Shown here one piece after another: positions 10,602-51,541 of a DNA stretch of 64,000 bases. The number at the start of each line of letters is the position of its first letter. Position 1 is the first letter of the stretch. Source of the DNA: Patescibacteria group bacterium (GTDB lineage Bacteria > Patescibacteriota > Doudnabacteria > UBA920); the NCBI GenBank assembly GCA_013387205.1, contig WARV01000008.1:64136-128135 (forward strand), given 5' to 3'. The translations under genes and the position numbers were made by a program. The notes beneath the pieces are model-generated. The model worked only from the letters and a program-made list of their open reading frames with translations, was not told where the DNA came from and did not search any database.

Positions 10602-12122
10602 ATGAAACCGAAAATTAAGCTCCTCCTCTCATTTTTAGGCATTTTAGTGTTAGCCGCCTCAGCTGTATGGATAGCTTTACCGCAAGGCAGCAAAATCGAC
10701 TTAAATAAACTCAAAATAAAATATTCCCAAAGCTTTAGAATCCATTTAGGATTGGACCTTCAGGGCGGATCGCACTTGGTTTACCAGGCTGATTTTAAGG
10801 ATATTAAAGACAGCGATAAAGCTGACGCTCTAAACGCTATCCGTGATACGGTTGAGCGCAGGGTTAACAGCTTTGGAGTCAGCGAACCCCTGGTGCAAGT
10901 TACAGGGACTGACCGTATTATCGTTGAATTGCCTGGCATTAAGGACGTCAACGAAGCCATTAACCAAATAGGCCAGACTCCGTTTTTGGAATTCAGGACA
11001 CAGAACCCGAACCCGCCAGAACTTAAGCCTAATAACAAGGGCGAAGTTGTCATTGACCCGAATTCCCAATGGATTCCAACCGGCTTGTCCGGCAAACAGC
11101 TCAAGAAAGCCAGTGTGGATTTTCAGCAGGGAAAGGGACTTAACAACGAAATAGTGGTCAGGCTGGAATTTAACGACGAAGGAAAAAAATTATTCTCTGA
11201 TATCACGACAGCAAATGTGGGCAAGCAGGTTGCCATCTTTTTGGACGGACAAATTTTGAGCGCTCCGGTCGTGCAAAATCCGATTACTGACGGCACTGCG
11301 ATAATTACCGGAAACTTTACGACCCAGCAGGCCAAAGATTTGGCCACCAGACTCAACAGTGGAGCCCTTCCGGTTCCTATAAAGTTGATTTCGCAGCAGA
11401 ACGTTGGCGCCACGCTAGGAAAAGAATCTGTCCAGAAATCCATCATAGCGGGACTTATTGGTCTTATCATGATTGCCTTGTTCATGATTATGTATTACCG
11501 TTTCCCGGGTTTTTTGGCAGTTATCGCTTTGCTAATTTACGCCGTGGTTTCTTTGGCAGTATTTAAAATCGGCATTTCGTTTACCGCAGTTTTGCTTGTG
11601 GGATTTTTCTTCTTCCTTGGACTTACTGTGAATTTTTGGTTTGGCATTTTGGCGCTCTTGAGTTATATCTTATTGATGTTCCTGAAAGGATTATCTCCGG
11701 TTACTCTAACCTTGGCAGGCATCGCTGGTTTCATTTTGTCCATCGGTATGGCAGTTGACGCCAACATTCTTATTTTCGAGCGCGTAAAAGAAGAAATAAG
11801 GGCAGGCAAAGAAATCCACAAAGCCGTTGATGACGGTTTTGCCAGAGCCTGGCTGTCCATCCGTGATTCAAACGTTTCCAGCTTAATTACTACCGCCATC
11901 CTTTATATTTTCGGCAGCCCGTCCATTAAAGGTTTTGCAGTTACGCTGGGGATTGGTATTTTAATCTCCATGTTTACGGCCATAACCGTCACCAGGACTT
12001 TCCTGAGGCTGTTTGTTGGCAATAACATTATGACCCATCCGTGGCTGTTTGGAGTAAGCAAGTTAAAACCAGAAAAGAAAGATGCTCCGAATACGAATCA
12101 AGAACCTGTAACAACAATATAA
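10602..12122 (+). CDS. secD: Protein translocase subunit SecD
   Basis: LGLDLQGGSHLVY motif; 506 aa with C-terminal TM helices; followed by secF. Confidence 0.85.
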   Translation: MKPKIKLLLSFLGILVLAASAVWIALPQGSKIDLNKLKIKYSQSFRIHLGLDLQGGSHLVYQADFKDIKDSDKADALNAIRDTVERRVNSFGVSEPLVQVTGTDRIIVELPGIKDVNEAINQIGQTPFLEFRTQNPNPPELKPNNKGEVVIDPNSQWIPTGLSGKQLKKASVDFQQGKGLNNEIVVRLEFNDEGKKLFSDITTANVGKQVAIFLDGQILSAPVVQNPITDGTAIITGNFTTQQAKDLATRLNSGALPVPIKLISQQNVGATLGKESVQKSIIAGLIGLIMIALFMIMYYRFPGFLAVIALLIYAVVSLAVFKIGISFTAVLLVGFFFFLGLTVNFWFGILALLSYILLMFLKGLSPVTLTLAGIAGFILSIGMAVDANILIFERVKEEIRAGKEIHKAVDDGFARAWLSIRDSNVSSLITTAILYIFGSPSIKGFAVTLGIGILISMFTAITVTRTFLRLFVGNNIMTHPWLFGVSKLKPEKKDAPNTNQEPVTTI

Positions 12123-12264: not shown

Positions 12265-13158
12265 ATGTTCCAAACATTAAAATATTACAAACTATGGTTC
12301 GCGGTTTCCGGGATTATCTTGCTTTTCGGGATTGTTTCACTTTCAGTTTACGGCCTTAAGCTGGGGATAGATTTTAAAGGCGGTACGCTAGCGGAAATCC
12401 AATTCAGCAAGGCTTACGACATAAGCAAAGTCCGTGAATCGGTAAGCCAGTCGGGGATAGGGAACTTCCAGCTGCAAACTGCGGAAAACAACACCATAAT
12501 CATAAAAACCGAAGGATTGGACAAAGAAAAGCATGATTTGATGCTGAATAACATAAAAACCCAAGTAGGAGATTTTAAGGAGATCAGGCTTGATTCCATT
12601 GGTCCGATTGTCGGAAAGGAGCTGAAAAAGAATGCGGTATACCAGTTAGTTATAGTTTCGCTCGGGATTGTGATTTACATTGCGTATGCTTTCAGACGCG
12701 TAGCCAAACCGGTGACATCCTGGAGGTTCGGTTGGTCTGCTGTTATTGCTTTGCTGCATGACTTGCTGTTCGTATTGGGAATTTTTTCCATCCTCGGCCA
12801 TTTCAAAGGCGTTGAAGTGGACAGCTTGTTCGTTACTGCAATGCTCACGGTCTTGGGATTCTCAGTCCACGATACGATTGTGGTTTTTGACAGGATTAGG
12901 GAAAACTTAAAAGTTTACGCGGGTGAAAGCATTGAGTTCGTCGTCAACCATAGCATCAGCCAGACTATAGTCAGGTCTTTAAATACCAGCTTGACCGTGT
13001 TGTTCGTCCTTCTGGCCTTGTTACTGTTCGGCGGAGAAACGATTAGGTATTTTGTTTTTGCCTTATTCATCGGAATTATTGTTGGAACATACTCTTCGAT
13101 ATTCATTGCAAGTCCAGTTTTGGTTTTATGGCAAAATTGGAAAACAAAAAAAGCATAA
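12265..13158 (+). CDS. secF: Protein translocase subunit SecF
   Basis: GIDFKGGT motif; 6 TM helices. Confidence 0.85.
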   Translation: MFQTLKYYKLWFAVSGIILLFGIVSLSVYGLKLGIDFKGGTLAEIQFSKAYDISKVRESVSQSGIGNFQLQTAENNTIIIKTEGLDKEKHDLMLNNIKTQVGDFKEIRLDSIGPIVGKELKKNAVYQLVIVSLGIVIYIAYAFRRVAKPVTSWRFGWSAVIALLHDLLFVLGIFSILGHFKGVEVDSLFVTAMLTVLGFSVHDTIVVFDRIRENLKVYAGESIEFVVNHSISQTIVRSLNTSLTVLFVLLALLLFGGETIRYFVFALFIGIIVGTYSSIFIASPVLVLWQNWKTKKA

Positions 13159-13159
13159 T

Positions 13160-13192
13160 GTCAAAAACCCCCTAAAAAGGGGGTTTTTTAGT
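13160..13192 (+). terminator. Rho-independent terminator
   Basis: aaaaccccctaaaaagggggtttttt. Confidence 0.7.
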
Positions 13193-13196
13193 GTAT

Positions 13197-13225
13197 TTGA
13201 CAAGTATATTGGTTTATGATATACT
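13197..13225 (+). promoter_or_regulatory. Sigma-70-like promoter: TTGACA, 17-nt spacer, TATACT
   Basis: Consensus -35 at 13197-13202, exact 17-nt spacer, -10 at 13220-13225, about 95 nt upstream of the ATG at 13321. Confidence 0.5.
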
Positions 13226-13320
13226 AAGTGAAATTAACGAATTATTAATAATTTGTAACTGAAAGTTTCAGATAATAATTTTCTTCAGTTATCGATTATT
13301 AGTCATTAGTTTCAAATTTT

Positions 13321-14415
13321 ATGGGAATTCTTGATACAATTATCCATACTAAACAAAGCGAATCTCTTACGCAATTCAAGCCTGCTGAAATAGTCAGGGA
13401 AATTTTGGCTAGCTTAAAGGAACGCGACAAACAAATTTTAATGCATAGGTATGGCCTTGAAGGCAAAGAAACCAAAACCTTGGCCGCCATTGGAGCTGAA
13501 CAGAATTTAACCAGGGAACGCGTGCGCCAGATTGAAAAAGATTTGATGAAAAATTTGCGTAAGTCCAGCATAAAACTGGAACCTTTTTCCAAGACAAAAG
13601 AATTTTTGCTCAATATTTTTGCCGAACACGGCAGGATTATTGCCGAGGAAAACTTGCTGTTGTATTTGAATATCAAGGACGAAGAAGAGAAAAATGCGAT
13701 TGTATTTTTGCTGCATTTAATTGAAGAATTGGATAATTTTATCCATGATAACTACAAGAAAAGCTGGGTAACGGTTTTATTCAATGAAAATTTGCTGCAT
13801 ACTTTCACCGGTGAAAGCAAGCAGATTTTGTCTTCCAGTACCAAGCCGCTCCCTTCGGAAGAATTTTTGGCGCATTTCAAGCAGACTGATTTTTACCAGC
13901 AAAACCAGGCTGAATTGAGCGATAAAATCATTTTGAATTTTTTGGAACTGACTGTCCATATTGAAAAGAACGTTTACGGGCATTGGGGATTGTCTAACTG
14001 GAAAGAAATCAACCCGAAAGATGTCGGCGACAAAGCTTATCTGGTCATGAAATACCATGGCAAGCCGGAACACTATTCCGCAATCACCGAAATGATCAAC
14101 AAAGCCAAATTCGACAACAGAACTGCATTTAAAGAAACTGTCCATAACGAATTAATCAAAGATTCCCGTTTTATCCTTATCGGAAGGGGTATATACGCCC
14201 TGTCTGAATGGGGTTACAAGCCGGGCGTGGTCGCGGACGTGATCATTGAAATCTTAAAGCAAGCAGGGCAGCCTTTGACTCGCGACAAAATTATTGAAGA
14301 TGTCTTAAAGAGGCGCATGGTCAAGAAAAATACCATTTTAGTCGGCTTATCAAACAAGAAAATTTTTAAGAAAATCGGAAAGAACCTTTACGCCTTGCAA
14401 GACGGCGTGCAATAA
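13321..14415 (+). CDS. Sigma-70 region-4-like HTH domain protein (putative regulator)
   Basis: ILMHRYGLEGKETKTLAAIGAEQNLTRERVRQIEKDLMKNLRK resembles sigma-70 region 4; the rest is unassigned. Confidence 0.5.
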   Translation: MGILDTIIHTKQSESLTQFKPAEIVREILASLKERDKQILMHRYGLEGKETKTLAAIGAEQNLTRERVRQIEKDLMKNLRKSSIKLEPFSKTKEFLLNIFAEHGRIIAEENLLLYLNIKDEEEKNAIVFLLHLIEELDNFIHDNYKKSWVTVLFNENLLHTFTGESKQILSSSTKPLPSEEFLAHFKQTDFYQQNQAELSDKIILNFLELTVHIEKNVYGHWGLSNWKEINPKDVGDKAYLVMKYHGKPEHYSAITEMINKAKFDNRTAFKETVHNELIKDSRFILIGRGIYALSEWGYKPGVVADVIIEILKQAGQPLTRDKIIEDVLKRRMVKKNTILVGLSNKKIFKKIGKNLYALQDGVQ

Positions 14416-14506
14416 TTTTAAAACAGTCAAGAAGTAGTCTTGAAAAGCAGCTTTTCAGGCTAATTCTGAAGGCAAACCCCCTACTTGATACAAAAATATA
14501 AATTAC

Positions 14507-15823
14507 GTGTTTGAAGGAATTTTTCCTAATTTCATAACCATATTCCAAACATCCGCTCTTTTTTTCGCCAAGGGCGGATGGGTCTTTGTCGTTTGGATGA
14601 TAATCTATATCCTGTATAAGATGTACCGCAAGGAAATTGAGCACCAGTATGTCCACGGCATAGAATGGATTTTTTTCAATATAAAAGTTCCAAAAGATAA
14701 CCTGACCAGCACCCTGGCCGTAGAAAATATTTTTGCCCAGCTGCATTCTTTGCATTCAGGATTGACATTTGCGCAAATTTACGTAGAAGGCAGGGTGCAG
14801 TTGTGGTATAGTTTGGAACTTGTCAGCATGGGAGGAAAAATATCTTTCATAATCAGGCTGCCGAAACAGACTAAGGATTTGGTTCAAGCCTCTTTTTACG
14901 CGCAATACCCGAACGCGGAAATTACAGAGGTGGCCGATTATATGGAGAATATCCAGTTTGATCCGGATACTACGACGGATTTTGACATTTGGGGTACGGA
15001 ATGGAAGCTGGAAGAAAACTTTACTTTGCCTTTAAAGACTTACCGGGATTTTGAACATCCGGCATCCGAAGAAAAAATTATAGACCCGTTGCAGGCGCAC
15101 TTTGAATCTTTAAGCATAATGCAACCTCATGAATTTTATGGCGTGCAGATTATAATCCAGACAATAGCGGACAATGACTGGAAACCGGCTTCTGAACGTA
15201 AAGCTAAAGAGCTGACCGGCGAGGAAATCCCGCATCATAAGAGTTTCGTTGATATTTTGCTTACTCCTTTGGATTGGTTTGCCAGTTTGGGCCATGGCGG
15301 GCATGGGCACGACCATGGACACGATGAAAACAAGCCAAGGAATAACTGGATGAGCATGACTGACGTAGAAAAAGAGCGCGTAACTTTAGTGCAAAGGAAA
15401 ATGGGAAAACCGGGATATAAAACTAAAATCAGGCATTTATATATTGCGCCAAAAGACAAATTCGATCCCGCGAAAAAAGGTATCATTATCGGTTCTTATC
15501 GCTTTTTGGGATCTACCTTGACAAATAAGCTCAGGCCTGACGTTTCAAATACTTGGACCGGGGGCGAATATGTTTTTTCGCCAACTTTAGAAAAACCATA
15601 TTTGGATTATAAAATTAAGAAAAGAAAGCGATTTATTTTCAAAGGCTATAAAAACCGCGATATCCATTTGGGCCTGCCCATGTTCGTCTTAAATACTGAG
15701 GAGCTGGCCACGCTTTACCATTTCCCGATTACCAGCGAACTCAGGCAGATTTTGGCTTCTGTCGAAAAAACGGAAAGCAAAAAGACCCAGCCGCCTACCA
15801 ATTTGCCTATTTCTAATTTTTAA
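14507..15823 (+). CDS. Membrane protein (N-terminal TM helices) with an HGGHGHDHGHDE His-rich segment; putative partner of the downstream ATPase
   Basis: Hydrophobic N-terminus; His-rich insert; 67 nt upstream of the ATPase. Confidence 0.45.
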   Translation: MFEGIFPNFITIFQTSALFFAKGGWVFVVWMIIYILYKMYRKEIEHQYVHGIEWIFFNIKVPKDNLTSTLAVENIFAQLHSLHSGLTFAQIYVEGRVQLWYSLELVSMGGKISFIIRLPKQTKDLVQASFYAQYPNAEITEVADYMENIQFDPDTTTDFDIWGTEWKLEENFTLPLKTYRDFEHPASEEKIIDPLQAHFESLSIMQPHEFYGVQIIIQTIADNDWKPASERKAKELTGEEIPHHKSFVDILLTPLDWFASLGHGGHGHDHGHDENKPRNNWMSMTDVEKERVTLVQRKMGKPGYKTKIRHLYIAPKDKFDPAKKGIIIGSYRFLGSTLTNKLRPDVSNTWTGGEYVFSPTLEKPYLDYKIKKRKRFIFKGYKNRDIHLGLPMFVLNTEELATLYHFPITSELRQILASVEKTESKKTQPPTNLPISNF

Positions 15824-15890
15824 TTTTTTGATATTGTTGATGGACGCCTTTGGGGAATCCCCAAGAGGCGTCCATCAAAGGTAAAAATAT

Positions 15891-17918
15891 ATGAGCCAGA
15901 CAGGCAGAGAAGAAATTACCGTGTTTGCCAAAACCAACTTCCGCAATAAGGAGGTGCCTTTTGGCATTAAAACCGACGACCGCAGAAGGCATATGTATTT
16001 AATCGGTAAAACCGGCATGGGCAAAACGACCATGATGGAAAACATGGTCATCCAGGATATCCGCAACGGGCATGGCGTGGCATTTTTGGACCCTCACGGT
16101 GATTCGGTGCAGAGAATCCTAAATTGCGTCCCGAATAACAGGGTAAACGACGTGGTGTATTTCAATCCGGCCGACATGGAATACCCGCTGGCTTTCAATA
16201 TTTTAGAAGCGGTTGACGCCAAATATAAGCACTTGGTGGCTTCCGGCCTTATGGGCGTGTTTACGAAAATTTGGGCCAACTTATGGTCTGCCAGGATGGA
16301 ATATATCTTGAATAACACTATTTTGGCGCTGCTCGACAGTCCAGGCAATACTCTTCTTGGAATTACCAGGATGTACGTAGATAAAAAATACCGCAAAAAA
16401 ATCGTTGATAATATTAAAGACCCGATGGTCAGGGCATTTTGGACCGATGAATTCGCGAACTATAACGAAAAATACCGCACCGAAGCCATTGCGCCAATCC
16501 AAAACAAAGTCGGGCAGTTTTTGTCGTCCGCGATTATCCGCAATATTGTCGGCCAGCCGAAAAGCACTATTGACCTTAGGGAGATAATGGACAAGCAGAA
16601 AATTTTGATCATGGATTTGTCCAAAGGAAAAGTCGGTGAAGACAACTCTGCTTTGCTTGGCGCCATGGTGGTTACCAAATTGCAGCTGGCAGCCATGTCC
16701 CGCACGGACATTCCCGAGCACGAAAGAAAAGATTTCTATTTGTATGTGGACGAGTTCCAGAATTTCGCCACGGAAAGTTTTGCGACAATTTTGTCCGAAG
16801 CCCGCAAATACCGTTTAAACCTGGTTGTCGGGCACCAGTATATGGGCCAGCTTGTACACGAGCGCAATACTAAAGTTAAAGACGCAATTTTGGGCAACGT
16901 CGGCACGATGGTTGTTTATAGGATTGGCGCAGAAGATGCGGAAATCTTGGTCAAGGAATTTGAGCCGGTTTTTGAAGCGATAGATATGGTTAACCTGCCA
17001 AAGTATAATATAATTTTGAAATTGATGATCAATGGCGTGGCGAGCGAGCCTTTTTCAGCCATCACCTTGCCGCCAAGCCCGGATTTCGTGACTGGCAATT
17101 CGGAAAAAGTCATTAAAGTTTCAAGGGAAAGGTATACTAACCCTGTCCACGAAGTAGAAGATAAGATATCACGCTGGATGGGCGCTGAATTCCACCAGGA
17201 ATCCGCCATGCTCATTGGCGAAGCTGCTGAAGAATCTGTTAGCGCACCTAATCAAGAGCCGCAAGTAATAGCGGCTCCTATAAAGCCCGAAAATATCCAA
17301 AAAGCCGAAATTAATCCCGCGCCGGAACAAACAAGCCAGGAAATTGGCAATGTTATCCAGCCGCAGCCGGTAATTTTTGCCAATCCGATTGAAGTGGCGC
17401 CTAAACCTGTAGAAAATAAACAAGAAGCCGTGCAAAGTTCCGCAGCTCCATTAATAGTCCAACAACCGGAAAAAACCGTATCTGAAAATAATTTTCCGGA
17501 AAAAACCAACCCGGTTGTTGCTTACCAGGAAAACCATAATGCCCAACAGAGGGAAACGAGATCGCCGTTATTTAGAAGTGAAAATAGGACGCATAAACCG
17601 CACAAGCCCCATGCAAGCCATGGCCATTCAAGCCATTCTTCCCATTATAAGCCCCACCATAAAACCCCAAGCAACCACCATGTAAAAAAAGAAAACCCGA
17701 TTTGGGATACTGTCGCTAGCCTGCAAAAAGACAAAAGAGACCAGGATAAAAAGATGCTAGGGCGGATTTTTGACTCAAATGATTCCCATAAAACTGTCCA
17801 ATCAAACAGTCAGGCAGTAAACGAACAAGATAGGCAAAATGAGCAATCGCAAAAAAATAACGATAACAACACCGACGGAAAAAAGGTCTTAAATCCCGGC
17901 GAATCGCATAAGTTTTAA
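15891..17918 (+). CDS. VirD4/TraG/TrwB-like type IV coupling-protein ATPase (FtsK/HerA superfamily), soluble, with a low-complexity His/Pro-rich C-terminal tail
   Basis: Walker A LIGKTGMGKTT; FLDPHGD; Walker B YLYVDEFQNF; RLNLVVGHQYMGQL; tail HKPHKPHASHGHSSHSSHYKPHH. Confidence 0.6.
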   Translation: MSQTGREEITVFAKTNFRNKEVPFGIKTDDRRRHMYLIGKTGMGKTTMMENMVIQDIRNGHGVAFLDPHGDSVQRILNCVPNNRVNDVVYFNPADMEYPLAFNILEAVDAKYKHLVASGLMGVFTKIWANLWSARMEYILNNTILALLDSPGNTLLGITRMYVDKKYRKKIVDNIKDPMVRAFWTDEFANYNEKYRTEAIAPIQNKVGQFLSSAIIRNIVGQPKSTIDLREIMDKQKILIMDLSKGKVGEDNSALLGAMVVTKLQLAAMSRTDIPEHERKDFYLYVDEFQNFATESFATILSEARKYRLNLVVGHQYMGQLVHERNTKVKDAILGNVGTMVVYRIGAEDAEILVKEFEPVFEAIDMVNLPKYNIILKLMINGVASEPFSAITLPPSPDFVTGNSEKVIKVSRERYTNPVHEVEDKISRWMGAEFHQESAMLIGEAAEESVSAPNQEPQVIAAPIKPENIQKAEINPAPEQTSQEIGNVIQPQPVIFANPIEVAPKPVENKQEAVQSSAAPLIVQQPEKTVSENNFPEKTNPVVAYQENHNAQQRETRSPLFRSENRTHKPHKPHASHGHSSHSSHYKPHHKTPSNHHVKKENPIWDTVASLQKDKRDQDKKMLGRIFDSNDSHKTVQSNSQAVNEQDRQNEQSQKNNDNNTDGKKVLNPGESHKF

Positions 17919-17933
17919 ATTACAAGGAAAATT

Positions 17934-17962
17934 AAATGGCTCAACCATCGGTTGAGCCATTT
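17934..17962. terminator. Bidirectional terminator hairpin between convergent genes
   Basis: aatggctcaacc-atcg-gttgagccattt. Confidence 0.55.
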
Positions 17963-17974
17963 AAGATACCTGAT

Positions 17975-18295
17975 TTAGAGATATTTTTTAATTTCAGCTT
18001 CTACTGTGGATTTCGGCGCTGCGCCAATGAGCTCGCCAACCATTTTCCCGTCTTTAAAGAATTTCAGTGTCGGGATGCTCATAATGTTGAACCTTGAAGC
18101 GAGCATGTTGTTTTCATCCACGTTGACTTTCCCGACTTTTAATTTTCCTTCATACTCGGTTGCAAGCTCGTCCACAATCGGCCCTAAAACCTTGCAAGGT
18201 CCGCACCAGACTGCCCAAAAATCCACCATCACCGGAAGAGGGGAATTTAATACTTCAGACTCAAAATTTTGTTCTGTTATTGTTATTTCAGACAT
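17975..18295 (-). CDS. trxA: Thioredoxin
   Basis: WAVWCGPCK active site. Trimmed to MSEITITEQ (106 aa) with a GGAG ribosome-binding site upstream. Confidence 0.85.
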   Translation of the reverse strand: MSEITITEQNFESEVLNSPLPVMVDFWAVWCGPCKVLGPIVDELATEYEGKLKVGKVNVDENNMLASRFNIMSIPTLKFFKDGKMVGELIGAAPKSTVEAEIKKYL

Positions 18296-18540
18296 TTGTT
18301 TACTCCGATCCGAATACACCCTATTTCCGAACTCTTTTTTTAGTTCATTCGGATAATTCGGCCTTGCCCGCCATGGCTTTAGCGACGGCGGGATGTATTC
18401 GGAGATTAGAATCGCTACTAACCATTTTATCCACAATAAATAGCTTTGTCAATGTGATTAATTGCGATATAATTTTAATAGAATTTCCGTAATAAAAATG
18501 TAAATAAAACCTCAATTAAAAAACGAAAATCAACAGGGGA

Positions 18541-25294: not shown

Positions 25295-27481
25295 ATGGGG
25301 AAAAACCAGAAAAAATTCAGGCTCCATATCCACCAAAACTTGTCGATTTCGGTAAGTGCTGAAAGCAAGCTGAAACCTGCGAGTGTTTTTAGCATGCGGA
25401 GTTTTTTTGTTTCAGCATTATTAAAAATTTTCAAATCGATTTACGAATTTTGTTATTTTATCGGGAACGCTATTATAAAGTTTTCGTCTTTGGCAATCAT
25501 TTTTTCTAAAAACGAAGTTTTTAGGACAAAACAATTTTTCTTGAAAAGAATTAAAATATTAGCTCAGCCCGAATATTTTAAAACATTAGCTGTCTTCACT
25601 TTTGTTTTGATAGTGAGCATCTTAGGACTGCAGTCTTTTAAAATTGTCGCCAAGGGGTTGGAAATAAAACAGAGCGTGCTTGGGATTACGGCAATCGGCA
25701 ATAAATACATGTTAGGCGCAAAAAAATCTCTGGAAAAGCAAAACATCGGTTCAGCTGAAGACAGTTTTATAAGAGCATATAATGCTTATAAAGACGGCCA
25801 GAAACAGCTTTCCGGCGCAGAAAATTCAATTAACTTAATACTTGGCCTTTTCCCGCAAAAAAAAGACGCGGAGAATCTCTTAAAGGCAGCTTCGCTGGTT
25901 TCCCAGAGCGGGGCAATGCTCACTTCGGCTTACCAGGATATCTCCAGCCTTAAATTTAACGCCACGGGAATATCTTCCGATCGCCCCGTTCCTGAAGTTT
26001 TTGAGTCTCTGGATAACTCATTGTCAATTGTAGGACAAAACCTGGAAACGGCAGGTTCGCTTTTAAAAACAATCAACCTTTCTTCAATTCCTAAAAATCA
26101 GCAGCCAAATTTTCTTGAATTGGAATCCGGCGTCAATGCTTTAAAATTGTCTTTAAGCAATACCAGGGACATGTTTTCAATAATAAAGAACTTATCCATG
26201 GGAAAACAGCGGATACTGATGCTTTTTGAAAACAACAACGAACTGCGGGCAACGGGCGGATTTATGGGCACGTTCGGCGACATCCAGGTGTCTAACGGGG
26301 TTATGGAAAAAATTAAAATCAGCAGCATTTATGATTTAGACGGGCAGCTTGAAGAAAAAATCATGCCGCCAAACCCGCTGCTGGCGGTGAATGGCCGGTG
26401 GTTTTTAAGGGATGCGAATTGGTTCTCTGATTTTTCATTTTCCGCAAAAAAAATAATTGGTTTTTATGAAAAAGAAGGCGGGGAGACGCCTGATACGGTT
26501 ATTGCAATGACTCCTTCTTTGATTGTCGATATGCTGAAAATTACCGGACCGGTAAATTTGCCCGCGCATGGGGTAAGCCTTGATTCTGATAATTTCATTG
26601 AACAAACCCAGATTGCGACATCCGCTGATGAATACAGGCAAAATACTCCAAAACAGGTTCTTGCTGACTTTGTCCCGGTTTTCTTGCAGAAAATCAGCAA
26701 CCTAAAACCGCAGGATTATCCTGCGGTACTGGAGGTTTTGCAAAAAAACCTGAACGGCAAGCAGATTCTTGCATACTCAAGGAATCCTTTGTTGCAAAAA
26801 AAGCTGGAAGAATACCATTGGGCAGGGCAAATTTTCGGCACGGACAGGGACTTCCTTTCAGTAGTCAGTAGCAACCTGGGCGGCACAAAAACCGATTTAT
26901 ATACTAACCAGCAGATAAATTTGAAAAGCACGATAGATAGCGAGGGGTATATTGTCAACGAACTGCAGATTACCAGGACCAATAGTTTGCCGAAACTGGA
27001 AGACACTAACAATAACAGTTTTATAAGGATTTATGTGCCTAAAGGATCGACTTTAATCAGTAATTTAGGGTTTGATTATAAAAATTTGGATAACGCGGCT
27101 GATAAGGCTTACAAAACTGACGCTGATGTCCATGAGTGGGAAAAAAACTCGGTTAAGGATTTGGTTTCCGGAATGCTCATTGGAACCGAGTCGGGCAAAA
27201 CATATTTCGGCAATTGGCTGAACGTGGAAGGCGGGGAAACCAAAACTGCAAAATTGTCTTACCGGCTGCCTTTTAAAATTAAAGATATTGACCATTATAG
27301 CTTATTAATCCAAAAGCAGGCTGGCGCTATTGACCAAAGCTTAAGTTACGAACTGGATTTTCCGGACAGGTCTATTGCATGGAAAAATTTCAGCGACGCG
27401 GAAATTAATCAGAATAAATTAAATACGGAAATTATTTTAAATAAAGACTACTTGTTGGGCCTGGTATTAAATTCAAAATAA
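25295..27481 (+). CDS. DUF4012 domain-containing protein, membrane-anchored (common in CPR)
   Basis: NNNELRATGGFMGTFGDIQV motif. The N-terminal start is uncertain and may be an internal Met. Confidence 0.5.
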   Translation: MGKNQKKFRLHIHQNLSISVSAESKLKPASVFSMRSFFVSALLKIFKSIYEFCYFIGNAIIKFSSLAIIFSKNEVFRTKQFFLKRIKILAQPEYFKTLAVFTFVLIVSILGLQSFKIVAKGLEIKQSVLGITAIGNKYMLGAKKSLEKQNIGSAEDSFIRAYNAYKDGQKQLSGAENSINLILGLFPQKKDAENLLKAASLVSQSGAMLTSAYQDISSLKFNATGISSDRPVPEVFESLDNSLSIVGQNLETAGSLLKTINLSSIPKNQQPNFLELESGVNALKLSLSNTRDMFSIIKNLSMGKQRILMLFENNNELRATGGFMGTFGDIQVSNGVMEKIKISSIYDLDGQLEEKIMPPNPLLAVNGRWFLRDANWFSDFSFSAKKIIGFYEKEGGETPDTVIAMTPSLIVDMLKITGPVNLPAHGVSLDSDNFIEQTQIATSADEYRQNTPKQVLADFVPVFLQKISNLKPQDYPAVLEVLQKNLNGKQILAYSRNPLLQKKLEEYHWAGQIFGTDRDFLSVVSSNLGGTKTDLYTNQQINLKSTIDSEGYIVNELQITRTNSLPKLEDTNNNSFIRIYVPKGSTLISNLGFDYKNLDNAADKAYKTDADVHEWEKNSVKDLVSGMLIGTESGKTYFGNWLNVEGGETKTAKLSYRLPFKIKDIDHYSLLIQKQAGAIDQSLSYELDFPDRSIAWKNFSDAEINQNKLNTEIILNKDYLLGLVLNSK

Positions 27482-33871: not shown

Positions 33872-35767
33872 ATGGAAAATGAGGTCGTAAAATACATAAA
33901 AGAGGCCCGACAACATGGCTTAAGCGATCTTGAAATAAAACAAAATTTGCTCAATGTTGGCTGGGAAGCCGATGCAGTTGAGGATAGTTTTGCGTATGTC
34001 AAAGCTTCAGAAAATAAGCCTTTGGCAAACCGCGACGAAGATATTAAAACTCACGCGTCTCAGACCCCCGACCAATATTATAAAAGAACCCTTGGCGATA
34101 CCGGTGGTGTTGCGCATGGTATAAATTCTGTTAAGCCTGCTCAGTTACCACACGAAGAACCGCAAATGGCTGCAAAACCTGCTTCTGTCCAAACCAACCT
34201 CCCGCAGCATGCACTAAATATTTCCAAAAAACAATCAATCTTCAAAAATCCAAAATTTTGGACTAGCATTATTTTACTGGCTATGATTGGAGTCGGCGGC
34301 TATGCGTATTACACTTACGCCTATAACTCTCCTGAAAAAATTTGGAATAAGTTCGTAAAATCTGAAAAAAGCAGTATTTTTGAAAGCAATTTCACTTACG
34401 CATATGCGGATAAAGGTAAAATTTCCAGCGATAACAAAGATCTGGCTTCCTTAAAAGGCATAAAACTCTCGTTTGCAGGGGATTCATACGTAAATTCCAC
34501 AGACCCGAATAACACGCAGTCCAGTTCAAAGTTCCAATATTCGTTCAGCAGCGGAAATACCAGCATCAGCACCGGAGCGGAATATATCCTGCTGAATAAA
34601 AATTTTTACCTGAATGTTGGCGATAACCCTTTTTTGTCCAAAATCTTGGATTCTGTAAGCAAGGGTAAAAAATATGACTGGATAAAAATCGATTTAGGCG
34701 CGATTCAGGATGAAATGGCAAAAAGCAATAAAGACGGCCTGGATAAGTTTAATGAAATATTCAATCCAAGTTTTAAGCAGGAATTAGCAAATATTTGGGA
34801 AAACGCGACATTGGTTAAAATAGATAAATATCTCGGCAGGGAAAAAGTCGGCGACGTTAACACCCTTCATTTTAAAAATTCCCTGGACAAGCAGGCTTTA
34901 AAAGACGCGATAAGGCAATACGCGGATAAGATAATAAATGCTTTAAACGAAAAAGAAACAAATCCTGAAAATAAACTAAAAGATGAGGATAGAAACGCTC
35001 TCTATTCGGCCATAAACAGTTTAATTGATAAAACCAACATTTCGGAATTTGAAACATGGATTGGCATAAAAGATTTTAAGTTATACAAAGTCCATCTGGT
35101 AACCAGTGCTCCTTCTGTGGCGTCTATTGCCAATCTGGCGTCTACGGAATATTCAGACATGGCAAATCTGCCCACGCAAAACAGCGACACCAAAAAAATA
35201 TCGGACATCAGGCAGTTATCGGCAGCCTTGGAAAGCTACCATAAAGATAAGGGCGGTTACCCGGAAGCGAACAACGGCGTTCCCACGGATATTTCACCGT
35301 TTTATGTTGCAGTCGTCCCTGTTGCCCCAAGCGCTACGGGCAATTGCACGGATTTTTATAATACATACTGGTATACGCCAAAAGGCGAAAAGAAAACAGT
35401 GAACGGCAAAACATTATACAGTTCGTTCGAATATACTTTTTGCATTGGCACAGACCAGGGAATGTACAAAGCGGGAATTGGCAAGCTGACACCATCAGGA
35501 ATTGAAATCCCCATAACCTGTCCCGGCACGCCGGAGCAATGCAGTAAGCCAAGCCAAAACCAAGATAAAACCAGGGATGAAAAAATCAATGAATTTATTT
35601 CAAAAATTGATTTTGCGGGCGAAATAAGAATTGACATGGTTTATTCCAATTACGGAAAGGCCAAGCAGCTGGAAGCGCCAAAAGAATATTTTGATGTAGT
35701 GAATGAATTAAAAAATACCCAATCCCAATCAAATTTTAAAAAAAGTTTGACTGGCAACATAAGATAA
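33872..35767 (+). CDS. Hypothetical membrane-anchored protein with a pseudopilin-like (GspG-type) segment
   Basis: TM helix around residue 140. DIRQLSAALESYHKDKGGYPEAN matches the D..R..DL..L..AL..Y....G.YP pattern. Confidence 0.4.
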   Translation: MENEVVKYIKEARQHGLSDLEIKQNLLNVGWEADAVEDSFAYVKASENKPLANRDEDIKTHASQTPDQYYKRTLGDTGGVAHGINSVKPAQLPHEEPQMAAKPASVQTNLPQHALNISKKQSIFKNPKFWTSIILLAMIGVGGYAYYTYAYNSPEKIWNKFVKSEKSSIFESNFTYAYADKGKISSDNKDLASLKGIKLSFAGDSYVNSTDPNNTQSSSKFQYSFSSGNTSISTGAEYILLNKNFYLNVGDNPFLSKILDSVSKGKKYDWIKIDLGAIQDEMAKSNKDGLDKFNEIFNPSFKQELANIWENATLVKIDKYLGREKVGDVNTLHFKNSLDKQALKDAIRQYADKIINALNEKETNPENKLKDEDRNALYSAINSLIDKTNISEFETWIGIKDFKLYKVHLVTSAPSVASIANLASTEYSDMANLPTQNSDTKKISDIRQLSAALESYHKDKGGYPEANNGVPTDISPFYVAVVPVAPSATGNCTDFYNTYWYTPKGEKKTVNGKTLYSSFEYTFCIGTDQGMYKAGIGKLTPSGIEIPITCPGTPEQCSKPSQNQDKTRDEKINEFISKIDFAGEIRIDMVYSNYGKAKQLEAPKEYFDVVNELKNTQSQSNFKKSLTGNIR

Positions 35768-46345: not shown

Positions 46346-47209
46346 TTAGTGTGTTATTGGCACATCTTTATACAAAGGAGGCAATAGTGAAAAGATCAGC
46401 TTAACCATTTTAATCTCATTGTCTTTTCCCCGCCACTCCTTAAGTGCGCAGGTCGAAGGAAACTCAATCTTTGGATTGCAAGACCTGGTGATTACGTGGA
46501 TGTAAGTGAGGGAAAAGGGTACCCCACCCACCAATATCCTATCACGCTCACCAACTGTTTCTTTCTGCGCAGGCTTAACAACCAACTTAGTTAAGTACTC
46601 CTTGTCGGTAAGCTTGACCAACGCGTCTTTGAGAGCAGGACCTGTTTCTACGCTCGGGTAGTCAGCCTTACTAGTGTCGATGCTGGTAGGATAGGTCATG
46701 GCCGTAAGAAATCCAGTATCTTTATTGCATACTTCCAGCTGGCTAACTTGCCAGTCACCGGAAAGAATTTGCGGAGACTGCTGCTCAGCGCACTCTGCCA
46801 GAAGAGGATTCTTTTTGCCTCTCTTGAAAACTTCACGGAACTGCCGGCAAACATCGTTTATAACACCCCATTTGGACCAAGGTAACGGTTCAAACAGGTC
46901 AATCCGCGCAACATTGTTTTCAATGGAAAAAATTAGGTATATTGCGCTACAGATATTTAAGTCTCCGCTAACTTGTGCGTTGTCGAGCTGGCAGCTGCGA
47001 AACGGCGCGTCCACAACGTTACCCCAAACGCTGAACCAAAGTTTATACAGGTAATTCGGCACCAGCACCTCCACGGTTCCGTGCGTTTTTGGCAAGAAAT
47101 TATCAGCATTTGATGATTCTGTGGGTAAAAAGAACCTGGCTAACAGGTTACTGAATCTTCTGGGACCGACTGGATACTTAAGTAGTAGTCTGCGAATTAC
47201 AGCTTCCAT
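46346..47209 (-). CDS. Hypothetical protein (island cargo)
   Basis: 287-aa ORF, about 48% GC; no family recognised. Confidence 0.45.
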   Translation of the reverse strand: MEAVIRRLLLKYPVGPRRFSNLLARFFLPTESSNADNFLPKTHGTVEVLVPNYLYKLWFSVWGNVVDAPFRSCQLDNAQVSGDLNICSAIYLIFSIENNVARIDLFEPLPWSKWGVINDVCRQFREVFKRGKKNPLLAECAEQQSPQILSGDWQVSQLEVCNKDTGFLTAMTYPTSIDTSKADYPSVETGPALKDALVKLTDKEYLTKLVVKPAQKETVGERDRILVGGVPFSLTYIHVITRSCNPKIEFPSTCALKEWRGKDNEIKMVKLIFSLLPPLYKDVPITH

Positions 47210-48489: not shown

Positions 48490-49362
48490 ATGGAAAACAA
48501 TATAGGCAATAATATGCCACCAAGACCTGAACCAAGTCATGCTAATTCTGCTATGCCGACAGTTAACAGAAAATGGTATAAGCATAAAGGGATAATTGCA
48601 ATCATAATTTTAACCGTGATTGCGGGTGTTGTTGTTTGGGGTTACACATTGAATCAACCGCAAAATTTAGGTGCCATAACCAATGTTATAAACAGAAAAA
48701 AGTTAGCAGCTTCCAATTCGTTAATTTACCCAGGAGCCAAATTAACCGCTGTCAAAAAAAACAATGACGGAACTTCTTCTGTTGGATACGAAACATATGG
48801 AGATAACGTTCAATCATTTTATGCAGAACAACTTAAACAATTAGGATGGAATAAAGTAGCCGAATTGGGAGCCGCAGATATGACTTTATGCGGAGGCGAT
48901 TGGGGCGGCACATACGAAAAAGACGGCCAAAAATTTAAGTTGCATATATGTGGGCCTGATTCAGGAGATTTCCAGAAAGATATCAGTTTTTACTTTTACA
49001 ATGTCGAGCCAGAAAAAGTTTTAGGTGATAATTTATCAGGCGGGACTTTAAGCTGCGTTACTGATGCAAAAATTAATCTAACGAGTGCCTGCGCCACCCA
49101 AGACACTATAAAAATCACTTTGAATACACAGCGTCCAGAGTTGAATAAATTTCAGGTTTATATAACGGGTGAAAAATATACGAGCTTCCCTGACGTAAAT
49201 GCTATTGCTAGCAATTCCACTGTAAAAGAAGTTGATATCCCATACGACATTACAAAATGGGGTAATATCCAAAAAGTGCAGGTTACCCCCGTTATCACAA
49301 GCGATGGGACATTTTATTGCAGCGAACAAGCGGTTGAATCAGCTGTAAAAACTTGTAATTAA
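48490..49362 (+). CDS. Membrane-anchored hypothetical protein (island cargo)
   Basis: TM helix at residues about 33-55; Cys-containing extracytoplasmic domain. Confidence 0.45.
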   Translation: MENNIGNNMPPRPEPSHANSAMPTVNRKWYKHKGIIAIIILTVIAGVVVWGYTLNQPQNLGAITNVINRKKLAASNSLIYPGAKLTAVKKNNDGTSSVGYETYGDNVQSFYAEQLKQLGWNKVAELGAADMTLCGGDWGGTYEKDGQKFKLHICGPDSGDFQKDISFYFYNVEPEKVLGDNLSGGTLSCVTDAKINLTSACATQDTIKITLNTQRPELNKFQVYITGEKYTSFPDVNAIASNSTVKEVDIPYDITKWGNIQKVQVTPVITSDGTFYCSEQAVESAVKTCN

Positions 49363-49468: not shown

Positions 49469-51145
49469 ATGGACAACGCTGAAAACCCGAACTCAAATAA
49501 CAGCAATCCCCTTTTGACCACTAAAGATTTAGTCAGCCTTTTGTCATCTAAGTTCCAAAGAAATGAGCAAGTAAGGGATACTAGCAATTACAGGTATGTC
49601 ATATACGCTAGAAAATCGACGGAGAACGCCGAAAAACAGGTCAGGTCGCTATCTGACCAAGTTATTGAATGTAAGCAATTAGCCGAAAAGGAAAACTTAA
49701 AAATTATATCGGTTATCACCGAATCGGAATCGGCCAAAGAGCCGGACATTCGGCCAAAGTTTCGGCAGATGTTGGAAGATATGAAAAGCGGAAAATTTGA
49801 GGGGGTAATTGCGTGGCATCCTGACCGGCTGGCGCGTAATATGAAAGACGCCGGTGAGATTATAGATTTGCTGGACAAGGAACTTATTAAAGATTTAAGG
49901 TTTGTCAGTTACGTTTTTGTAAACGATACGGCCGGCAAAATGATGTTGGGTATTTCTTTTGTCCTGTCTAAACAGTATTCGGACAAGTTGAGCGACGATG
50001 TTTTGCGAGGCAATAAACGGAGCATTGAAGAGGGTAAATATCTTGGCCGCGTTAAACACGGCTATTACAAGGACGCAAATCAATTACTGCGGCCGGACGG
50101 CGATAATTTCCTTCTTATAAAGCAAGCCTTTCAATTACGGCTACAAGGTAAAACGATTGACGAGATTAAGGACTTTTTACACGCGCATAATTATTCGCTG
50201 CGGCAGCCCAACGGCCAGCATAAACTTTACAGGATAGATAAAAAGCGTGTTTCGGACTTTCTTAAAGACCCAGCCTATACTGGCGTGCTTATACGTGGCG
50301 ATAACATTGTGGATTTAACCGAAAAATACCAATTCGTTCCTGTTATTTCGGTAGATGACTTTTTAAAAATTAACAAACTCACTCTGTCCAAAGCGTTTCG
50401 CTTGGTCAAGAAATTCTATCCGCCTAATAAGATTAAAGCCGACCTGTTTCGGGGTTTGGTAACTTGCGGTGAATGTAACGAAATTATGTCATCGGGAATT
50501 ACAACCAAGCCCAAAGTCGGCAAGTCTTATTTTTACTTTCGTTGCGAAACTGACCGCTGTCCGGTAAAAGACAAATCCGTTAGGGCTAAAGTTATTGTGG
50601 ACTCGGCTTGCGAGTATTTAGAGCAAAATCAATTTAGCAGCCCAAAAGCCTATGAGCATTATAAAAAGGAATCGGCCAAAGTTTTTACCGAGCGACTGGC
50701 TGATGTTAAAAAGCAGCACGATGTTTTAGTGGCTTCCAAGCGTGAGGGTGAAAAGCGGCTATCTAAAATTAAAGACTTCTTGCTAAAGGAAGATGACCAA
50801 GCGCTAAGGGAATCATTTAAGGCCGATTTAGCCACAAAAGAAAAAGAATTAACAGAACTGGCCGAGCAAATATCCAAACTCAAAGCAGCTTTGCACACTA
50901 AAAAGACGGCGATTTTAAATTATCCGCAGTTTCTCGAACTTTTAGTTAAACTGCCCGTGGTTATTAGACAAACTAAGAATATGCAGGACTTAGACTTCCT
51001 TATACGAAAAATCTTCTCGAACTTTATTATCAGCAAACAAAAAACGGCTCAAATAAAACTAAATGAACCGTTTAATGCCCTCCTTGGGGTGGCAAAAATG
51101 CCCGAAAGTATACAATGGCGGGGACGGCGGGGCTCGAACCCGTAA
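49469..51145 (+). CDS. Large serine recombinase (resolvase catalytic domain, recombinase domain and zinc ribbon)
   Basis: YVIYARKSTENAEKQVRSLSDQ (catalytic Ser); HPDRLARN; CGECN ... C ... C zinc ribbon; 558 aa. The last 10 codons are antisense to tRNA-Asp. Confidence 0.8.
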   Translation: MDNAENPNSNNSNPLLTTKDLVSLLSSKFQRNEQVRDTSNYRYVIYARKSTENAEKQVRSLSDQVIECKQLAEKENLKIISVITESESAKEPDIRPKFRQMLEDMKSGKFEGVIAWHPDRLARNMKDAGEIIDLLDKELIKDLRFVSYVFVNDTAGKMMLGISFVLSKQYSDKLSDDVLRGNKRSIEEGKYLGRVKHGYYKDANQLLRPDGDNFLLIKQAFQLRLQGKTIDEIKDFLHAHNYSLRQPNGQHKLYRIDKKRVSDFLKDPAYTGVLIRGDNIVDLTEKYQFVPVISVDDFLKINKLTLSKAFRLVKKFYPPNKIKADLFRGLVTCGECNEIMSSGITTKPKVGKSYFYFRCETDRCPVKDKSVRAKVIVDSACEYLEQNQFSSPKAYEHYKKESAKVFTERLADVKKQHDVLVASKREGEKRLSKIKDFLLKEDDQALRESFKADLATKEKELTELAEQISKLKAALHTKKTAILNYPQFLELLVKLPVVIRQTKNMQDLDFLIRKIFSNFIISKQKTAQIKLNEPFNALLGVAKMPESIQWRGRRGSNP

Positions 51146-51192
51146 CCTCTCGCGTGACAGGCGAGTGCTCTAACCAATTGAGCTACGCCCCC
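51116..51192 (-). tRNA. tRNA-Asp (anticodon GUC)
   Basis: Manual fold: GGGGGCG acceptor, D arm GCTC/GAGC, anticodon loop CTGTCAC, T loop TTCGAGC, CCA end. Confidence 0.8.
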
Positions 51193-51268
51193 AAATATTA
51201 AGTTCTAAATCCTAATTTCTAAACTCTAAATATTGCTAAAGGATATGGCCAAAGGCCAGACGAAGCTT

Positions 51269-51345
51269 TAGCGAAGTCTGGTGCCGGAGGGTGGAATTGC
51301 ACCGCCGACCTTGGGCTTATGAGTCCCACGCTCTAACTAACTGAG
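51269..51345 (-). tRNA. tRNA-Met or tRNA-Ile2 (anticodon CAU), with an atypical T arm
   Basis: Acceptor GCCGGAG/CTCCGGC, anticodon loop CTCATAA, CCA end. The T loop TGCAATT has one stem mismatch. Confidence 0.6.
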
Positions 51346-51465
51346 CTACTCCGGCTTATTGCTGTTTAAACTAAAACCCTCCGGACAGAGGGTAAAAATC
51401 TGTCACGATTTTCAGGTTTTTAACCTAGTCAGTTTTCCATATCCATAATTGATGAAAAACTAGCT

Positions 51466-51541
51466 TGGTTGCGGGACCCGGACTCGAACCGGGAACCTCA
51501 AGGTTATGAGCCTTGCGAGCTGCCAATTGCTCTATCCCGCG
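51466..51541 (-). tRNA. Initiator-like tRNA-fMet (anticodon CAU) with a C1:A72 mismatch
   Basis: CGCGGGA ... TCCCGCA-A-CCA, anticodon loop CTCATAA, T loop TTCGAGT. Confidence 0.7.

Follow-up and report, generated by a model that had tools for sequence, protein, structure and literature searches.

A conserved Patescibacteria locus for a putative membrane ATPase split between two genes and a sigma region 4/HARE-HTH protein

What does an ATPase related to the coupling proteins of type IV secretion systems (T4SSs) do in chromosomal housekeeping DNA? The question is raised by three genes, here called g1, g2 and g3, in the 64,000-nucleotide stretch that we analyzed (the window; positions 64,136 to 128,135 of contig WARV01000008.1, from a Patescibacteria group bacterium of the Doudnabacteria). 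An earlier note, made from the sequence alone, had described a protein like region 4 of sigma-70 followed by a split type IV coupling protein (T4CP); the three open reading frames (ORFs) lie on the + strand where it placed them, and every g3 motif that it quoted is present. We find that g2 and g3 correspond, in order, to one single-chain phage protein and that the g1-g2-g3 order recurs across deeply diverged relatives. In our best explanation, to which we give a probability of about one-half, the locus is a vertically inherited, phylum-wide operon of Patescibacteria for a fissioned membrane motor, consisting of a VirB4-type N-terminal domain (NTD) and a T4CP-type ATPase, together with a sigma region 4/HARE-HTH protein, and it works apart from the T4SS. 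The genes are as follows.

13321-14415, + strand: g1, 364 aa; sigma-70 region 4 (about residues 10-85) and HARE-HTH winged helices (238-297 and a second, weaker stretch)
14507-15823, + strand: g2, 438 aa, GTG start; membrane anchor with a hydrophobic N-terminal helix (about residues 5-38) and a large, putatively cytoplasmic domain
15891-17213, + strand: g3 core (residues 1-441); soluble P-loop ATPase of the T4CP type, with a predicted helical insert separating Walker A from Walker B
17214-17918, + strand: g3 tail (residues 442-675); disordered, rich in N, P, Q, E, S and K, as judged from composition and motif conservation

The complete g3 ORF (15891-17918, + strand) encodes 675 aa. The earlier note had called the product a VirD4/TrwB-type ATPase without a transmembrane (TM) anchor of its own, and the profile searches bear this out: the best profiles are those of T4CP families, not of an unrelated P-loop family. 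Pfam families above their gathering scores (GA) are TrwB_AAD_bind (52.9 bits; GA, 20.5), DUF87 (36 bits; GA, 23.2), TraG-D_C (27.9 bits; GA, 22) and T4SS-DNA_transf (25.9 bits; GA, 20.1). The TrwB_AAD_bind alignment covers g3 residues 27-345 and profile positions 10-310, with the all-alpha insert region included. The motifs are GKTGMGKT (residues 39-46), DPHGD (67-71), YVDEFQNF (285-292) and RLNLVVGHQ (308-316), and the key positions G39, G42, G44, K45, D67, P68, E288, R305, L309 and Q316 are invariant in 44 orthologs, among them gp156 of phage G. Walker A is reached already at residue 39, and nowhere does the hydropathy of g3 rise to TM grade (maximum KD19, 1.21).

A search of the PDB with a profile of the 44 orthologs returned TrwB (E value, 5.6e-8) and DotL (2.9e-7), with the C-terminal domain of VirB4 (4ag5) at 0.37. 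The NCBIfam model VirB4_plasma scored 16.9 bits, over the Walker A region only. At an E value of 0.1 or less, g3 had no Pfam match to CagE_TrbE_VirB, AAA_10 or P-loop_TraG, and the window copy had none to PF01580 (FtsK_SpoIIIE), PF09397 or PF13491; five of the six orthologs scanned gave sub-threshold Walker A matches to FtsK_SpoIIIE (13.5 to 17.4 bits; GA, 24). No HAS-barrel match was found for g3, and the DUF87 domain is also common to VirB4- and VirD4-like proteins. Since TrwB and DotL are the best solved relatives and the VirB4 domain reaches only 0.37, we concluded that g3 is, by sequence, of the T4CP type rather than the VirB4 or FtsK type, and probably not of the HerA type. Its best NCBIfam scores are far below the equivalog cut-offs (SXT_TraD, 53.4 versus 366; CD1115 VirD4-like, 41.7 versus 250). 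An AlphaFold2 (AF2) model of g3, built on a shallow alignment of sequences about 85% identical, has a pLDDT of 48 and predicts helices at residues 104-212.

The anchor is provided by g2. A single segment of TM grade lies at residues 15-37 (maximum KD19, 2.0) and is modelled as one long helix (7-50), and the basic residues that follow it would place the remaining domain, of about 380 residues, in the cytoplasm. The AF2 model of g2 (52-sequence alignment) has a pLDDT of 86.9 and a pTM of 0.81. When it was compared with the PDB by Foldseek, the top 12 matches were all TrwK/VirB4 chains of the R388 T4SS (E values, 1.3e-4 to 2.9e-3; probabilities, 0.98 to 1.0). Among viral models (BFVD) it matched gp156 of phage G (1e-16) and the VirB4-like gp155 (4e-6), and the same search returned a 913-aa protein of phage JL and a 551-aa protein of phage Slash. 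The g2 sequence profile had no match among PDB sequences, nor did hhalign match the g2 family to gp155; the link between g2 and VirB4 is therefore structural only. The claim that this gene supplies TM helices thus holds for the anchor but not for the rest, because there is one helix and it carries a large domain resembling the VirB4 NTD.

The g2 family shares a conserved LNTEELATLYHFP motif and ends in PPxNLP. It comprises 1162 close homologs and 1568 representative clusters; the homologs listed are 50-65% identical over 90-100% of the query, and most carry the precomputed Pfam accession PF26449, for which a literature search found nothing. NCBI calls a 400-aa protein from the internal Met39, which excludes the region 14507-14621 and with it the TM helix. 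Homologs align from residues 1-7 with 99-100% coverage, supporting the upstream GTG start.

Together, g2 and g3 match the two halves of single proteins. PHROG 5156 (824 positions) covers both in order, with g2 89-316 at positions 67-289 and g3 18-435 at positions 396-814 (E value, 1e-64). By hhalign, g2 69-422 aligns with residues 29-321 of phage G gp156 (825 aa; probability, 98.6; E value, 1e-15), and the alignment ends at a common motif, LNTEELATLYHFP / LNVQEMSQFIHLP. By BLASTP, g3 37-456 aligns with gp156 381-809 (E value, 2e-47; 27% identity). The break falls after the conserved ELAT..H.P motif and before the strand leading into Walker A. Because both halves are homologous, in order, to the single chain of gp156, we concluded from these alignments that the two genes represent a fission of a single TM-NTD-ATPase protein and not a T4CP that lost its TM domain. 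The earlier note was right that anchor and motor are on separate genes; its picture of a coupling protein stripped of its anchor is replaced by the fission. The two genes are separated by at most 20 nucleotides, or overlap, in 24 of the 45 loci in which both are complete.

In phage G, the gene for gp156 occupies 90859-93336 (locus L005 in our set) and adjoins that for gp155; its annotation as "MsbA-like" looks wrong. The gene for gp27.4 of phage SPO1 lies at 92636-95356 (L086); gene 27 and gene 28 (the middle-gene sigma factor) are about 2 kb away.

Conservation of gene order was assessed in 84 related loci, 4 from genomes and 80 from metagenome contigs (flanks of 7 kb on either side), in which the identity of g2 falls to 27-31%. 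The three-gene order is co-conserved over this range. In 55 of the 72 informative loci g3 is directly 3' of g2, one further locus has it at 6.7 kb, and g1 is directly 5' of g2 in 45 of 65. Upstream of g1 or g2, secF or secDF is present in 31 of the 45 loci with enough flank, across deep divergence. After clustering of all neighbours, only g2, g3, g1 and SecD/F were widely recurrent; 12 loci had an MnmA-like family and 9 had SecA. The clustered neighbours included no recurrent family of relaxases, VirB6 or VirB8, and among the 680 ORFs of the 84 loci phmmer with gp155 found no match and the g3 profile found no second T4CP-like copy. In the window, a terminator-like hairpin and a promoter-like site stand between secF and g1.

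The loci without g3 run into genes that we read from their sequence as nusA-tig-clpP, as comEC, a metallo-beta-lactamase gene, pilM and a pilin gene, or as a putative glycosyltransferase gene and others. At L033:2997-7411 and L040:5429-10064, g2 without g3 is followed by genes that read as ComEC-like, metallo-beta-lactamase, PilM-like and response regulator, with a pilin in L040. ComEC-like and pilin-like families occur in 4 of the 84 loci. Of the VirB4/VirB6 and competence genes that the earlier note proposed to look for, only competence-like ones were seen near g2, in the two loci inspected and as families in four of 84; within the 64-kb window no T4SS, relaxase or competence gene was found.

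Fifteen distant loci contain g1, g2, g3, secD and secF together; relative to the window genes, their median identities are 61% for g3, 49% for secD, 43% for secF, 36% for g1 and 31% for g2. The g3 core, about 85% identical among close relatives, thus evolves more slowly than SecD. Conjugation-type proteins do not usually behave in this way, and the slow rate suggests that the role is a conserved cellular one. Typical T4SS proteins are much less conserved than g3.

The first gene was also described correctly, as sigma-region-4-like and preceded by a near-consensus promoter sequence (TTGACA-17-TATACT, 11/12 positions). Pfam finds Sigma70_r4 at residues 29-81 and HARE-HTH at 238-297, and in the PDB a profile of the g1 family aligns, over residues 10-85, with region 4 of primary sigma factors (E value, 5.6e-19); a T.RERVRQIE-type motif is invariant in the family. 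All NCBIfam sigma matches cover only the C-terminal end of the profile, and region 2 is not matched. With regions 2 and 3 missing, g1 is not a sigma factor on its own. There is a weak match to the NCBIfam model TIGR04567 (RNA polymerase delta), and some homologs are named delta subunit by JGI. The domain combination of g1 is enriched in Patescibacteria.

The earlier note had drawn attention to His-rich segments in g2 and g3 and to metal-binding tails. Both segments exist, but neither is a family feature. The tract in the g3 tail is unique to the window genome, its close relatives being without it, and the Gly/His loop of g2 (GGGHGHGH, 263-274), a low-confidence loop in the model, is kept only in relatives at least 50% identical. 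We therefore rejected His tails as a metal-binding feature of the family. A treble-clef zinc finger is found instead in other lineages: of six orthologs scanned, four match PF23477 above its gathering score, and 22 of 45 (for example, L038, L036, L016 and L017) have a CxxC...CxxC tail pattern, which is missing from the window lineage. In the clade of the window all tail cysteines are lost and His counts are raised (14 in the window, 3 to 12 in L001-L009). Close relatives share the tail motifs KKENPIW..VA and, at the terminus, (V/I)LxPG(E/Q)(S/T)H (VLNPGESHKF in the window); in some other lineages the tail ends in PGQV.KF or a helical ELKK.LEE motif. Variable tails with short end motifs recall the T4CP tails that recruit adaptors (TraD-TraM, DotL).

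Published data from Southlakia epibionticum ML1 (Saccharibacteria) bear on function. SEML1_0294 (349 aa; Sigma70_r4 at 27-72, HARE-HTH at 225-283) is directly upstream of SEML1_0293 on the same strand, and SEML1_0293 is a single 921-aa protein with PF10412, PF12696 and PF01935, the PF10412 match starting at residue 402 (PMC10633639). Both are classed as core, Patescibacteria-enriched families (PMC10633639). From domain coordinates and synteny, not alignment, they are the apparent orthologs of g1 and of g2-g3, respectively. In transposon sequencing (Tn-seq), SEML1_0294 was essential at all three time points (ES/ES/ES), whereas SEML1_0293 was called non-essential (NE); its normalized reads fell from 5817 to 2940 to 1372 over outgrowth (about 4-fold), while those of its immediate neighbours were steady or rose (PMC10633639). 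We read the depletion as a contribution to fitness; the authors' call stays NE. The suggestion that this is a motor on which episymbionts of the candidate phyla radiation depend is therefore not upheld for the ATPase. The Tn-seq of the counterparts does show that serving the ATPase is not the only function of g1; the organism has a separate essential RpoD, SEML1_0063 (PMC10633639).

Orphan T4CP-like genes and the Tn-seq phenotypes are thus already published. In a survey of 3035 Patescibacteria genomes, VirD4-like proteins were present in 2918 (96%) and VirB4 in 2417, and the authors raised exaptation as possible for the orphan VirD4-like proteins, leaving their role open (PMC12102498). In the searchable literature we found neither the g1-g2-g3 module nor any report that g2 is VirB4-like or that the locus is syntenic with secDF.

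These observations suggest the following mechanism. The single N-terminal TM helix of g2 would hold a platform resembling the VirB4 NTD, which would recruit to the membrane, on its cytoplasmic side, an oligomer of g3 that is probably hexameric, as in TrwB. ATP hydrolysis by g3 would then drive the movement or remodelling of a substrate at the membrane, which we infer is most likely DNA or nucleoprotein, and the g3 tail motifs, or the zinc finger in other lineages, may select partners. The apparently co-transcribed g1 most likely contacts DNA (-35-like sites), RNA polymerase or both; it would have an essential function of its own and may also act as a regulator or adaptor for the ATPase. The machine is most likely independent of the T4SS of Patescibacteria, adding fitness without being indispensable.

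Several points weigh against this explanation. The substrate, the oligomer and the contact between g2 and g3 are predictions. With a g3 model at pLDDT 48, the T4CP assignment rests on sequence profiles, and the strongest of their PDB alignments lie mainly over the Walker A region. The TM-scores between g2 and TrwK are low (0.32 to 0.36), although the E values and probabilities are consistent, and this evidence is at the level of the fold. Adjacency is not obligatory, given that g2 has no g3 nearby in 16 of 72 informative loci and g1 is missing in 20 of 65. Synteny with secDF could mean a link to protein export and not to DNA. SEML1_0293 is apparently a g2-g3 fusion, as judged from its length, Pfam coordinates and synteny, and the contrast between an essential SEML1_0294 and a non-essential SEML1_0293 means that g1 may be only a neighbour.

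A first alternative is that g2 and g3 form the missing coupling ATPase of a T4SS encoded elsewhere, with the VirB4-like domain of g2 docking onto the inner-membrane complex of VirB4 and g3 feeding DNA or proteins to the channel. The best families and solved relatives of g3 are indeed T4CPs, T4SS clusters of Patescibacteria are without a recognizable coupling protein (PMC10633639), only 148 of 5713 T4CP homologs are near virB4 (PMC12102498), and gp156 has a VirB4-like ATPase as its neighbour in phage G. Yet no T4SS gene was found in the 64-kb window or within 7 kb in the 84 loci, VirD4-like proteins occur in about 500 more genomes than VirB4 (PMC12102498), and the conservation of g3 is far above what is usual for T4SS parts. 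In S. epibionticum the T4SS genes are essential and SEML1_0293 is not, whereas a different T4CP-like protein, SEML1_0142, is essential (PMC10633639). The Tn-seq and survey data thus weaken the view that g2 and g3 are an obligatory T4SS coupling protein, and we consider this alternative unlikely. SEML1_0142, the second T4CP-like protein of that genome (1019 aa; FtsK-like P-loop domain at 381-800, no Pfam hit) (PMC10633639), is a better candidate for the T4SS coupling ATPase than the g3 ortholog.

The essential phenotype of SEML1_0294 next to a dispensable ATPase would also be expected if g1 were a general transcription factor associated with RNA polymerase, with region 4 on the beta-flap and HARE-HTH acting as delta does, and if the ATPase merely shared its promoter or acted on membrane transcription complexes near Sec. 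The strength of the region 4 match, the invariant TRERVRQIE-type motif, the delta fold of HARE-HTH with the TIGR04567 match and the JGI names, and the presence of secDF, sometimes with secA, upstream all fit this picture, and g1 and g2 remain adjacent in L035, where g3 is missing. What such an account leaves hard to explain without a functional link is the adjacency of g1 and g2 in 45 of 65 loci, and in Saccharibacteria, over very deep divergence. A precedent is also wanting: we know of no T4CP-type ATPase that acts on RNA polymerase. On balance we regard this account as rather improbable.

Much the same holds for a role in DNA uptake, which we judge slightly more doubtful still. Here the ATPase would power or assist import with ComEC and type IV pili, like the VirB4-family ATPases of Helicobacter pylori ComB and of archaeal Ced import. 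The competence-like genes 3' of g2 in L033 and L040, with two of their families in four loci, point this way, as do a weak NCBIfam CedD match of g3 (E value, 8.5e-6; Walker A region only) and the position of the S. epibionticum pair, five genes from dprA (PMC10633639). Patescibacteria, moreover, are unable to make nucleotides and are naturally transformable (PMC10633639, PMC12857230). Such neighbours, however, are seen in a small minority of loci, where g3 itself is missing; g3 has no homology to ComFA; and since ComEC is dispensable in S. epibionticum (PMC12857230), uptake cannot explain the strong conservation.

That the locus is an FtsK-like segregation or dimer-resolution motor in pieces (anchor g2, motor g3, DNA-reading winged helix g1) is very unlikely. 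The three-part logic does recall FtsK with its TM, motor and gamma domains, the locus adjoins mraY-murD-ftsW in the window genome, and an integrase-like ORF that we read as XerC-like is upstream of g1 in L035. Neither adjacency is recurrent among the loci, however, and the FtsK_SpoIIIE profile gives nothing beyond the sub-threshold Walker A matches in orthologs. A replacement of FtsK was rejected, since a canonical FtsK (SEML1_0096; 4TM, alpha, motor and gamma domains) is present and essential in S. epibionticum as well (PMC10633639). An anti-phage defence module, suggested by PADLOC matches (mad8, 6.5e-15, for g3; MzaA, 4e-8, for g1), by a match to the DptH Walker B region (1e-4) in the g3 profile search and by a HerA-type match, is scarcely credible and was rejected, because the matches are at domain level only and the locus has single-copy housekeeping synteny phylum-wide, core-family status in S. 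epibionticum and an ATPase better conserved than SecD, the opposite of patchy, fast-evolving defence islands.

Our preferred explanation, the vertically inherited motor operon, can be taken further, although we offer the extension only tentatively and think it unlikely as a whole. The locus might encode a Patescibacteria-specific machine in which a membrane translocase of VirB4/VirD4 kind acts at the membrane, via the essential g1, on the chromosome or on RNA polymerase engaged in transcription, tethering or clearing complexes by the Sec translocon or moving DNA in a budding-type division. The pair g2-g3 would then be a third, vertical branch beside VirB4 and VirD4 and not a relic of a mobile element.

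The signals around the genes are listed below.

13163-13188, + strand: terminator-like hairpin ending the secD-secF unit; 11-bp stem with 5 GC pairs, then a T run
13197-13225, + strand: promoter-like TTGACA-17-TATACT with an extended -10 TG; intergenic, 11/12 match to a sigma-70-type consensus
15832-15883, + strand: RNA hairpin in the g2-g3 spacer, without a U tract; minimum free energy, -34 kcal/mol; z, -7.08 versus shuffles
17932-17964, no strand assigned: palindromic hairpin (15-bp stem) separating g3 from the convergent thioredoxin gene; reported by the scan on the - strand, it reads on both

No convincing + strand terminator was found between g1, g2 and g3, which look like one transcription unit, with the hairpin at 17932-17964 as its likely end. 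The promoter-like site is directly 3' of the secF terminator hairpin and 95 nucleotides upstream of the g1 ATG. The promoter scan as a whole was not enriched (13 promoter-like sites versus 13.3 in shuffles), so the call at 13197-13225 depends only on its position and its 11/12 match. The spacer hairpin may tune g3 relative to g2; strong hairpins also occupy the g2-g3 spacer in L007, L009, L043 and L079, non-homologous to that of the window. A search of the window with Rfam found tRNAs only and no RNA element inside the operon.

Upstream of g1 are secD (10602-12122) and secF (12265-13158). The genes 3' of g3 are those for a convergent thioredoxin and a D-Ala-D-Ala carboxypeptidase, then mraY, murD, ftsW and murJ. 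The thioredoxin ORF (17975-18436, - strand, 153 aa, TTG start) is probably too long, the domain starting at residue 51 and relatives aligning from about residues 30-45. A 728-aa DUF4012 protein is encoded at 25295-27481, inside the cell-wall cluster between ftsW and murJ. The housekeeping genes of the window further include lepA, genes for F-type ATP synthase subunits, pheS and a gene for an AddA-like helicase-nuclease, and the named homologs of its proteins are from Candidatus Doudnabacteria or Patescibacteria.

Elsewhere in the window, a large serine recombinase gene (Resolvase and Zn_ribbon_recom, 558 aa) starts the region 49469-51541; it ends at 51145 and overlaps the first of three opposite-strand tRNA genes (51119-51192, 51282-51355 and 51469-51541). 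Upstream of it are two ORFs without Pfam hits (46346-47209, - strand, and 48490-49362), and the recombinase/tRNA region could be the edge of an integrated element. Two large ORFs have no Pfam family above threshold, 33872-35767 (631 aa) and 60296-61846 (516 aa), the latter with a sub-threshold bacterial TSP3 repeat only.

A large part of bacterial diversity belongs to the Patescibacteria, and for most of the conserved genes enriched in this phylum no function is known. For the orphan coupling proteins, the present analysis supplies an anatomy: a fissioned TM-NTD-ATPase protein, a fixed sigma region 4/HARE-HTH partner, essential in the sole tractable model species, a conserved chromosomal context and single-chain relatives in Bacillus phages. 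If this branch of ATPases is indeed ancient and vertical, it bears on the divergence of VirB4, VirD4 and FtsK-like motors. The role is directly testable in S. epibionticum through SEML1_0293 and SEML1_0294.

Compared with the T4CPs TrwB, VirD4, TraD and DotL, g3 likewise passes the gathering scores of TrwB_AAD_bind, TraG-D_C and T4SS-DNA_transf and has Walker A, DPxGD, Walker B and a predicted helical insert, and, as in TraD and VirD4, its C-terminal tail is long and disordered and bears motifs at its end. It differs in having no N-terminal TM domain in the same chain, the anchor being on g2 and bearing a VirB4-type NTD that T4CPs lack, and in falling far below every NCBIfam equivalog cut-off. 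The locus differs in being chromosomal, syntenic and far more conserved, with no relaxase or mating-pair-formation gene nearby. With VirB4 (TrwK; PDB 7o42, 7o43, 8rtb and 8rtd), g2 and g3 share membrane association, an NTD of about 350-400 aa and a C-terminal P-loop domain; here, however, the ATPase half scores as T4CP, there are two genes, and there is no T4SS context. FtsK and SpoIIIE belong to the same ATPase superfamily and are likewise anchored in the membrane, with a winged helix that reads DNA and a long linker of low complexity, whereas in our locus the winged helices are on a separate protein, g1, and are of a different type.

The N terminus of g1 is a bona fide helix-turn-helix of the region 4.2 type, in a protein that, unlike sigma-70, lacks regions 2 and 3. 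The C-terminal half of g1 contains winged helices of the HARE type, like those at the N terminus of RNA polymerase delta (RpoE), without the acidic tail of delta. The S. epibionticum pair resembles the window in gene order and Pfam signatures, but there the ATPase is one protein, and no secDF is present in the annotation tables of that genome. Among phage proteins, gp27.4 of SPO1 (906 aa) is matched in the ATPase half only and is probably of the same kind, and the JL and Slash proteins are matched by the g2 fold only. The phage proteins, unlike those of the window, are fused, with neither an N-terminal TM helix nor a long tail. The closest likeness is to gp156 of phage G, which is homologous over both halves and is the single-chain form of g2, minus its TM helix, plus g3.

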